The position numbers and the translations under genes were made by a program. Positions 17,186 through 17,601 of a DNA stretch of 31,516 nt are shown here, one piece after another (the first letter of the stretch is position 1; every line of letters starts with the position of its first letter). This DNA comes from a virus. The notes beneath the pieces were generated by a model. That model made no database searches. It had not been told where the DNA came from and was given only the letters and a program-made list of their open reading frames with translations. The DNA is taken from IMG/VR virus record IMGVR_UViG_3300020724_000020. One strand, given 5' to 3'.

Positions 17186-17204
17186 AAAAATTTTTTATAT
17201 ATAA
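17186..17204 (+). promoter_or_regulatory. island promoter-like box AAAAATTTTTTATATATAA
   Basis: 3 nt upstream of ATG 17208. Confidence 0.4.
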
Positions 17205-17207
17205 GTC

Positions 17208-17564
17208 ATGAAAGTATTAATTGTTGAAGATGATGAATTAATTGGACAATTAATTCAGGAAGAATTAGAAGATTTTAATATTAGTTCAGTAATCGCAAGA
17301 GATGCAATTACAGCATATAAAATACTTAATATAAGTAAAGATTTTGATTATGCTGTTGTTGATCCAGGATTACCAGATGAAAATGGAATCATACTTGGTA
17401 GATATATAAAATCTATTTCTCATATTAAATTAATTATATACACCGGATCTGAATTACGCGATTATAGAAATTTATGTGAATATGATTATTTTTTAGAAAA
17501 AGGTCCTGGAATTAAATGTGTAACAGACATAATTGTAAATGACTTTCTCAGTCGATTTTCTTAA
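17208..17564 (+). CDS. CheY-like receiver (REC) domain protein, stand-alone
   Basis: MKVLIVEDDELIG...; acidic pocket and D in AVVDPGLPDENG; followed by orphan Fam-A tail. Confidence 0.6.
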   Translation: MKVLIVEDDELIGQLIQEELEDFNISSVIARDAITAYKILNISKDFDYAVVDPGLPDENGIILGRYIKSISHIKLIIYTGSELRDYRNLCEYDYFLEKGPGIKCVTDIIVNDFLSRFS

Positions 17565-17577
17565 TTAAATATAAACT

Positions 17578-17601
17578 GATGCGAAAAAATATAATCTATA
17601 A
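17578..17601 (+). other. orphan Fam-A tail DAKKYNL-stop downstream of REC gene
   Basis: GATGCGAAAAAATATAATCTATAA preceded by in-frame TGA. Confidence 0.45.

Follow-up and report, generated by a model that had tools for sequence, protein, structure and literature searches.

A stand-alone receiver gene beside a tail relic of a tandem gene family in DNA of a putative huge phage

Phage morons, known from lambdoid phages, are autonomous promoter-gene-terminator units located between phage genes, and T4-type phages possess hyperplastic regions subject to modular shuffling. Receiver domains have also been catalogued in phages before, as PHROG 731, whose function is listed as unknown. We analyzed a stretch of 31,516 nucleotides (nt) of viral DNA (IMG/VR record IMGVR_UViG_3300020724_000020; the whole stretch is called the window), in which a gene for a stand-alone CheY-like receiver (REC, positions 17208-17564, plus strand) is followed by a short relic of a member of the multigene family Fam-A. 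A preliminary description of this DNA had interpreted REC as a foreign gene captured by a Fam-A cassette slot. We regard it as moderately probable that a native REC unit lies at a recombination-prone site beside the Fam-A relic and that the locus reflects ordinary array turnover, not foreign capture.

The receiver gene, its homologs and its box

The open reading frame (ORF) of REC encodes 118 amino acids (aa), and its assignment as a receiver in the preliminary description was confirmed by Pfam, PHROG, PDB and structure comparisons. REC matched the Pfam family Response_reg (PF00072) over residues 3-86 with 36.3 bits (gathering cut-off 30.2; E 7e-9), and matches were also obtained to the receiver regions of many response regulators in NCBIfam and to the receivers of NtrC1, PhoP and CheY in the PDB. 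The N-terminal 83 residues matched phrog_731 (E 2.6e-13). An AlphaFold2 (AF2) model (pLDDT 91, pTM 0.86) predicts that the whole protein adopts a (beta-alpha)5 Rossmann-like fold without an output domain, and Foldseek aligned this model across 112-122 columns to the receivers of PhoP, NtrC1, Spo0F, DivK and CheY4 with TM scores of 0.79-0.83. The set of active-site residues is complete (E7/D8(D9), D52, T79, K98), with D52 aligned to the acceptor aspartate of NtrC1. Judged from its sequence and predicted fold, REC is a complete single-domain response-regulator receiver that can probably be phosphorylated.

Stand-alone homologs of REC (n = 20; 39-54% identity, 113-124 aa) are present on AT-rich phage-like contigs, which include a viral contig of 501 kb in IMG/VR (L014). 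The N-terminus of REC, MKVLIVEDD, forms the receiver beta-1 strand and the C-terminus reads ..NDFLSRFS; both ends are conserved in homologs, and the C-terminus resembles those of P0002 (..NDFLSKYS) and P0007 (..FFNRYS). Fam-A proteins start with a head of the type MK[YH][IL]K.[FY]E (MKYIKLFE..) and end with a tail ..KYNL-stop. As described earlier, REC carries neither: a test for the head was negative, the tail is absent, and KYNL does not end any of the 20 homologs. In the family alignment (P0001-P0020) the acceptor aspartate is replaced by asparagine in three proteins and deleted in two, so that part of the family may be pseudo-receivers. The LPDENG loop, AYK, YT and K98 are invariant in all 20. 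Since these positions are retained although five of the 20 proteins lack the acceptor aspartate, binding may matter more than phosphorylation. The role that we infer as likeliest is that REC accepts phosphoryl groups from histidine kinases, Hpt or other phosphorelay proteins of the host, or binds these proteins; as a phosphate sink, decoy or adaptor, it would redirect the two-component signalling of the host in the course of infection. With respect to a partner histidine kinase encoded nearby, which the preliminary description had considered, the search was negative: HisKA, HATPase_c and Hpt were absent from the 18 larger window ORFs scanned, and neither a kinase nor Hpt occurred among the precomputed Pfam matches in stretches of 10-20 kb around the REC homologs.

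The window has a GC content of 27% and is densely filled with short genes; stop codon usage is standard, the conserved Fam-A tail ending with TAA, TGA or TAG. The gene resembling that of the major vault protein (MVP-like; 18515-19801) shows about 69% nucleotide identity to the 'uncultured phage' records LR756500-3 of 462-735 kb, and relatives of window genes are located on contigs of 286.6 kb (L017), 501 kb (L014) and 531 kb (L023). On account of these matches we conclude that the window probably originates from a huge, uncultured, AT-rich phage. REC fits into this DNA, its GC content being 25.8% (z -0.2) and its synonymous-codon likelihood showing a z-score of +0.44. The best bacterial matches, found in species-representative genomes, reached at most 42% identity and covered only the N-terminal 60-85 residues; they came mostly from Bacteroidota and so give a faint indication of the phylum of the host. 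A tblastn search of REC against 50,697 phage genomes detected no homolog. In IMG/VR, neither REC nor the 456-aa protein encoded upstream of it (see below) retrieved anything when used as a single sequence, the REC alignment gave one locus there (L014), and a scan of metagenome contigs with the alignment yielded two distant receivers (32% identity) that were not used. Searches of the literature for KYNL, phage-encoded receivers and multigene families of huge phages found neither a KYNL family nor a phage CheY-like protein; the only receiver-related match was the cREC domain (Iyer et al., 2021; PMC7824862). With 20 homologs on related contigs, native composition and only partial similarity to bacterial proteins, the proposed foreign origin of REC was not upheld, and we regard the gene as indigenous to a lineage of huge AT-rich phages.

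A promoter-like box (AAAAATTTTTTATATATAA) is located at 17186-17204 on the plus strand, where its final base lies 3 nt upstream of the REC ATG and no Shine-Dalgarno sequence is present. Other copies of this TATATATAA box in the window precede only the array-first Fam-A genes at 1721, 7092, 8147, 24302 and 30838 and two further genes: a weaker copy lies before the protease gene at 3951 and another before the minus-strand gene at the window start. The common form AAAAWTTTTATATATA(A/C/G) was located at 1707, 7077, 8133, 17195, 24285 and 30825 (and at 3926), in each case 3-8 nt ahead of an ATG and without a Shine-Dalgarno sequence. As just 3-8 nt separate box and ATG, the box suggests a phage-specific promoter class yielding leaderless or near-leaderless mRNAs. 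A scan for sigma-70 promoters around the REC box gave nothing on the plus strand. The previous observation that REC uses the box of the Fam-A islands was correct, and because this motif is common to both, REC is probably expressed from its own box and co-regulated with the first genes of Fam-A arrays. REC did not borrow its box from the island, since the box accompanies REC in relatives: the homologs of L007-L012 and L014 have the same TATATA-type box immediately before the ATG, and that of L013 has it further upstream. In most relatives REC is a lone plus-strand gene among minus-strand genes of a second family, Fam-B; in L014 it follows same-strand Fam-A-like genes and precedes convergent genes, and in L007 it is followed by a hairpin and T-run resembling a terminator. 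REC and its box thus appear to be a self-contained unit of a family conserved across this group of AT-rich contigs. A minus-strand pair encoding 104 and 144 aa beside REC in L008-L010 was initially equated with window positions 13502-14222, which proved wrong: the 144-aa protein matches 22928-23431.

The tail relic and the site behind the 456-aa gene

The Fam-A genes of the window lie on the plus strand (7092-10850, 14311-17168, 24302-26342 and 30838-31152), and KYNL is invariant in the 17 members aligned. Among 111 tails from seven loci the amino acids are fixed and the synonymous codons vary (TAC 14%, AAC 27%, five leucine codons). This pattern shows that KYNL is under selection at the protein level and that Fam-A is a protein family, not a DNA repeat.

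The relic behind REC is a non-coding Fam-A 3'-end at 17578-17601 on the plus strand. It reads GAT GCG AAA AAA TAT AAT CTA TAA (DAKKYNL plus TAA) and is separated from the REC stop codon by 13 nt. The tail had been described as in-frame and preceded by a stop. The stop is there (an own-frame TAA at 17572-17574), but the tail lies in frame +1 relative to REC and is in frame only with itself. In the window, the 15-mer for KYNL plus stop had 21 matches versus 0.13 expected, all on the plus strand, and the 21-nt DAxKYNL pattern had 7 versus 0.00 expected. According to a position-specific scoring matrix (PSSM) trained on 86 tails, all from other genomes, the residues D-A-K ahead of KYNL add +10 bits in the relic and the match stops beyond them; the relic therefore comprises exactly seven codons plus stop. 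It was not found downstream of REC in any of eight relatives examined. Since KYNL is selected as protein sequence, the relic, which has no ORF, has no protein role. Checks for terminators, promoters and RNA folds around it were negative (folding z-score +1.19); the 15 nt at 17594-17608 show 93% complementarity to the box. We also rejected the idea that the relic is complementary to the start of a minus-strand MKYI.. gene, such as L019 has at that place: all 24 nt of the plus strand fit the DAKKYNL consensus, and the minus strand lacks an ATG. The relic is best read as what remains of a lost resident Fam-A paralog, an ordinary pseudogene remnant.

The left neighbour of box and REC is a conserved Fam-A gene for a 456-aa protein (15798-17168, plus strand; head MKYIKTYENF, tail ..IDSEKYNL), which served as synteny anchor. 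About 50 orthologs were found, including some on contigs of 531, 400 and 130 kb. REC follows the ortholog in none of six related genomes (L103, L019, L020, L021/L022, L023). In L103 and L019, whose 456-aa proteins are 80 and 77% identical to that of the window, a convergent minus-strand Fam-B gene comes directly after the ortholog. Minus-strand Fam-B genes follow in L020 (52%), one Fam-B gene and then Fam-A genes in L021/L022 (48%), and five canonical Fam-A genes in L023 (41%, 531-kb contig), so that the same slot is indeed occupied by regular family members in a relative. Nucleotide homology between the window and L019 crosses the stop codon of the 456-aa gene, ends at 17168-17181 (at most 13 nt past the stop) and returns at about 17596, inside the final 6 nt of the relic. 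Because homology breaks by 17181 and resumes at the end of the convergent gene, the segment of about 17182-17595 is specific to the window. It contains the box, REC, the 13-nt spacer and the first 18 nt of the relic; the corresponding interval of L019 holds two minus-strand genes. The absence of REC from this place in six relatives and the breaks in L019 homology around box and REC indicate, by parsimony, that the unit is probably secondary at this position. Of the earlier idea that slot replacement leaves a tail behind, the variable position and the replacement are thus supported; the foreign cargo and the special capture are not.

The left tail, that of the 456-aa gene, is identical to the L019 ortholog including the rare leucine codon CTT and the stop, and for this reason no crossover can be placed inside it. 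An origin of the tails on either side of REC as a target-site duplication was discarded, since 5 of the 9 nt directly before KYNL are different in the two copies and the left one is that of the L019 ortholog. In L019 itself (8183-11134), the closest long relative, an insert of 1.57 kb divides the 456-aa gene; it carries one Fam-A gene and, on the minus strand, three Fam-B genes. Each half is a complete gene, one with its own KYNL tail (206 aa) and the other with an MKYLRLFEE head (377 aa). A short form of 370-380 aa is found in several other relatives.

On the right, a convergent Fam-B-type gene occupies 17596-17897 on the minus strand. The ORF annotated at 17622-17897 is orthologous to L019 11667-11990 (BLASTP 38% identity, E 8e-20). 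Compared with this ortholog, an 11-nt indel after ..PDR shifts the Fam-B tail ..FISLQQERKIKLKKINFL out of frame; the tail survives in another frame and ends at 17596, and the gene may be a pseudogene or a tail-less variant. The TAG stop of the FISLQQERKIKLKKINFL frame is the complement of the relic's leucine codon CTA. Tail-to-tail overlaps of 6 nt between convergent genes recur in the window (5276/5281, 7410/7415, 10845/10850, 17596/17601), the leucine codon and stop of Fam-A (CTATAA, CTATAG or TTATAA) serving on the other strand as last sense codon and stop of the minus-strand gene.

Array turnover and competing accounts

The accessory regions of this genome are filled with the two fast-evolving multigene families Fam-A and Fam-B. 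Fam-B proteins end with RKxKLKKL; the copies nearest to two orphan Fam-A tails are on the minus strand, and plus-strand copies exist as well. A Fam-A profile built from 17 window members detected 532 cluster representatives (50% identity; E <= 1e-3) of about 85-135 aa, aligned end to end. Positions 1-20312 of L017 contain 47 consecutive Fam-A genes, 45 of which end with KYN[LI] and the others with NYNL and EYNL. A structure prediction for a core member (pLDDT 80.5) shows the head as disordered, the body as a Tudor/SH3-like barrel of five strands, and KYNL at the end of a C-terminal helix. Body sizes range from 73 to 527 aa, some with ankyrin repeats, and 64 of 111 gene junctions inside Fam-A arrays are ATGA overlaps. 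Searches of Pfam, PHROGs and the literature gave no family or name for Fam-A, and a homolog search with a 122-aa member returned only itself, the family being visible only by profile search. Comprising 532 clusters or more, Fam-A is uncharacterised and more remarkable than the REC finding itself.

Tails without an intact gene account for about 7 of 26, and in the orphans the residues upstream of KYNL reach the 98th to 99.9th PSSM percentile. The second orphan tail announced in the preliminary description was located at 5240-5281 (plus strand; DLKLKKEMEKYNL plus TAG, upstream score at the 99.9th percentile, at least 12 codons matched). As stated there, it lies next to Fam-B genes: it abuts the minus-strand Fam-B genes at 5276-7038 and overlaps the end of the first (5276-5503) by 6 nt. 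A third (..YPFQRDIEKYNL, 3755-3797, plus strand) adjoins a 5'-truncated IS607 transposase. This transposase belongs to an IS607-type element within 1721-3797, which comprises a TnpB-like ORF of 431 aa (2152-3447) and the serine-recombinase transposase (3434-3754, covering profile positions 90-186 of 187). The element lies between the third tail and a tail-less Fam-A ORF with head and body (1721-2068), which is possibly the matching head half, so that 1721-3797 looks like a Fam-A gene disrupted by an insertion element.

Further decayed copies include one at 9273-9377, a frameshifted one at 24603-24906 (plus strand; head MKYLKL.. in one frame, body and tail ..KINAIKYNL in another) and a mini-remnant at 25572-25663 (plus strand) that retains hardly any body and whose head MKYIKIYESND and tail ..EAKIIASKYNL are read in separate frames. 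An ankyrin-repeat member is split at 9374-9869 (9374-9661 and 9645-9869). A tail-head junction was duplicated recently (9340-9420 and 9832-9912); the final 60 nt, KKYNL and stop followed by MKYIKLYENENKWNKV, are identical, and one copy heads the split ankyrin-repeat gene. Larger rearrangements occurred as well. The MVP-like gene encodes 805-810 aa in L019 and L023; in the window, an inversion that spans about 6.4 kb and includes the REC locus has split it at residue 392. Its pieces lie at 12145-12369 (minus strand) and 18542-19786 (plus strand), the N-terminal 317 residues are missing, and a C-terminal ORF of 428 aa remains. The tails without intact gene, the inversion, the IS607 remnant, the frameshifted Fam-B gene and the split 456-aa ortholog in L019 argue that turnover is a general birth-and-death process and not a dedicated capture.

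As we infer its direction and mechanism, the rearrangement at REC would have started from a resident Fam-A gene ending with ..DAKKYNL, whose last 6 nt overlapped the end of the convergent Fam-B gene as in the other pairs. The unit of box and REC would have arrived behind the conserved 456-aa gene, a spot prone to recombination. Head and body of the resident gene would have been replaced on this occasion or removed by a later deletion, with the 24-nt relic staying behind. The orphan at 5240-5281 and the other decayed copies would represent the same debris, produced by illegitimate or short-homology recombination in arrays of tandem paralogs.

Several points weigh against this account. Its polarity is a matter of parsimony over a handful of partial contigs, and REC may be ancestral and lost elsewhere. 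No relative shows an intermediate with an intact ..DAKKYNL gene in the slot between the same flanks. The relics do not deviate from the consensus, which implies that they are recent or constrained. Both REC and the module of a protease and a secreted-protein gene upstream of the orphan at 5240-5281 are bracketed by tail repeats (39 nt, 77%; 31 nt, 84%) and each leaves 7-13 tail codons; this bracketing departs slightly from randomness and could point to recombination guided by tails in place of random breakage. A phosphorylation-based role is uncertain, as the scans revealed no partner kinase and the acceptor aspartate is missing from five of the 20 proteins of the family.

Among the alternatives, REC may be ancestral at this site and have been lost, or have never gained these neighbours, in the sampled relatives, the stump resulting from a simple deletion of the downstream Fam-A gene. 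We rate this as unlikely, while it fares best of the competing accounts. REC of L014 likewise follows same-strand Fam-A-like genes and precedes convergent genes, array deletions do occur (the mini-remnant at 25572-25663), and a gap of 13 nt between REC stop and relic would be expected if selection preserved REC. Against this, four or more lineages, the two closest among them, would have to have lost REC at the same site, and the neighbours differ in the other seven REC contexts.

Somewhat less probable still, Fam-A heads and tails could be portable address tags, for packaging, injection, processing or docking, and the arrays a coding-sequence-guided cassette system without dedicated integrase. 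Tail and head sequences would then guide exchange, and new cargo would become tagged, as in the 456-aa ortholog of L019. Untagged REC and the untagged C1 protease would have been dropped precisely between tails, leaving the stumps at 17578-17601 and 5240-5281.

It is improbable that Fam-A arrays are platforms that actively capture foreign, host-derived genes, guided by tail and head or by the box, and leave a tail behind. The bracketing of REC and of the protease module by direct tail repeats would fit, as would the short stumps at a convergent Fam-B boundary in both cases, the same box before REC and before array-first Fam-A genes, and the insertion into the 456-aa ortholog of L019, which gave two genes each with head and tail. 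However, REC is not foreign, the box is present also in relatives with REC outside Fam-A arrays, the left tail shows no crossover, and any replacement inside a tandem array yields tail bracketing. Recombinase-like ORFs among those scanned were limited to the truncated IS607 transposase and the TnpB-like ORF, about 13 kb from REC, and the junction of REC and relic, the only one folded, formed no hairpin or attC-like structure. The tests made gave no evidence of a dedicated capture mechanism, and the capture initially envisaged is replaced by general turnover.

A conservation of the stumps for a DNA function, as convergent gene end, transcript-end signal or minus-strand promoter-like element, has very little probability. 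The final 6 nt of four tails (ending at 5281, 7415, 10850 and 17601) do provide the last codon and stop of a convergent gene, 17594-17608 is largely complementary to the box, and the relics are perfect consensus sequences; but the overlap accounts for just 6 of 24 nt, no terminator or stable structure was found, the convergent gene is frameshifted away from that end, and box-like complementarity is expected in DNA with 24% GC. That REC is a decayed Fam-A fusion whose KYNL tail was lost by a frameshift or nonsense mutation can be practically discarded in spite of the same-strand tail just behind its stop, since its C-terminus recurs in P0002 and P0007, homologs of full length have no KYNL, read-through of the REC stop meets more stops with the tail in another frame, and the N-terminus is a receiver strand and not a Fam-A head. 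Equally negligible are chance matches in low-complexity AT-rich DNA: the A/T-rich core AAATATAATCTA gives 2.9 chance matches per window when one mismatch is allowed, but the excess of tail-plus-stop matches on one strand and the PSSM percentiles of the orphans are incompatible with it. The two observations named in the preliminary description as refuting it, a KYNL tail on REC homologs and a chance origin of the tails, were both looked for and neither was made.

Some neighbouring features complete the picture of the window. The protease upstream of the second orphan tail belongs to the papain family (C1; 3951-4715) and is followed by a small signal-peptide protein with Ser/His-rich repeats (4938-5156). 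These two genes are bracketed by a direct repeat of 31 nt (84%), one copy of which is the tail relic at 3766-3796 and the other the orphan at 5240-5281. Homologs of the protease are 55-60% identical and occur in unrelated viral contigs with 33-60% GC; the loci found with it belong to unrelated phages and gave no information on the orphan. A gene for a cyclic-phosphate-processing receiver (cREC, PF20274; 13788-14222, minus strand) lies divergently upstream of the Fam-A array. Its arrangement is the same in L019, L020 and L021, which makes it a conserved landmark, and it has no relation to REC. An ORF with a CYTH domain (23605-24015; PF01928, E 2e-8) overlaps the upstream ORF 23397-23693 and may be another split gene.

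Comparison with known systems

In a modest view, the locus presents a stand-alone receiver conserved across uncultured genomes of the huge-phage type and shows that genes enter and disappear from the arrays of tandem paralogs in such genomes, with datable stumps remaining; for Fam-A, the relics are natural markers of turnover. If REC taps the two-component signalling of the host, it would be a compact tool for host takeover by a phage. The larger value lies in the Fam-A context, with arrays of up to 47 consecutive genes and near-invariant termini.

REC is a single-domain response regulator, a kind already recorded in phages, and a moron-like autonomous unit. It shares with CheY, Spo0F and DivK (PF00072) the receiver fold of about 118 aa without output domain and the active-site residues. 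It differs from them in being encoded by phage-like DNA, without a cognate kinase or Hpt found in the scan of the 31-kb window, and in belonging to a family with an invariant LPDENG loop in which a quarter of the members have lost the acceptor aspartate. PHROG 731 likewise contains receiver domains of phages, but its profile of 227 positions suggests a longer protein than a bare receiver.

Like a moron, REC is an accessory gene standing by itself, accompanied by a promoter-like box and found in varied neighbourhoods, it is present or absent at the site behind the 456-aa ortholog among related phages, and in L007 it is followed by a hairpin terminator. Unlike morons, its composition is that of the surrounding genome, no terminator was found in the window, and the gene is conserved, not sporadic. 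The arrays resemble the hyperplastic regions of T4-type phages in their tandem small accessory genes, repeated short boundary sequences, and indels, replacements and relics between close relatives. The boundaries of Fam-A, in contrast, are coding (MKYIKLFE, KYNL) and are selected as protein, whereas those of the T4-type regions are intergenic promoter stem-loops. With integron cassettes, the analogy drawn in the preliminary description, the locus shares a slot array with conserved boundaries and variable cargo; it departs from them in that no integrase was found and no attC-like site at the one junction folded, that between REC and relic, and in that the Fam-A boundaries are translated and the cargo consists of paralogs, not of promoterless foreign ORFs.

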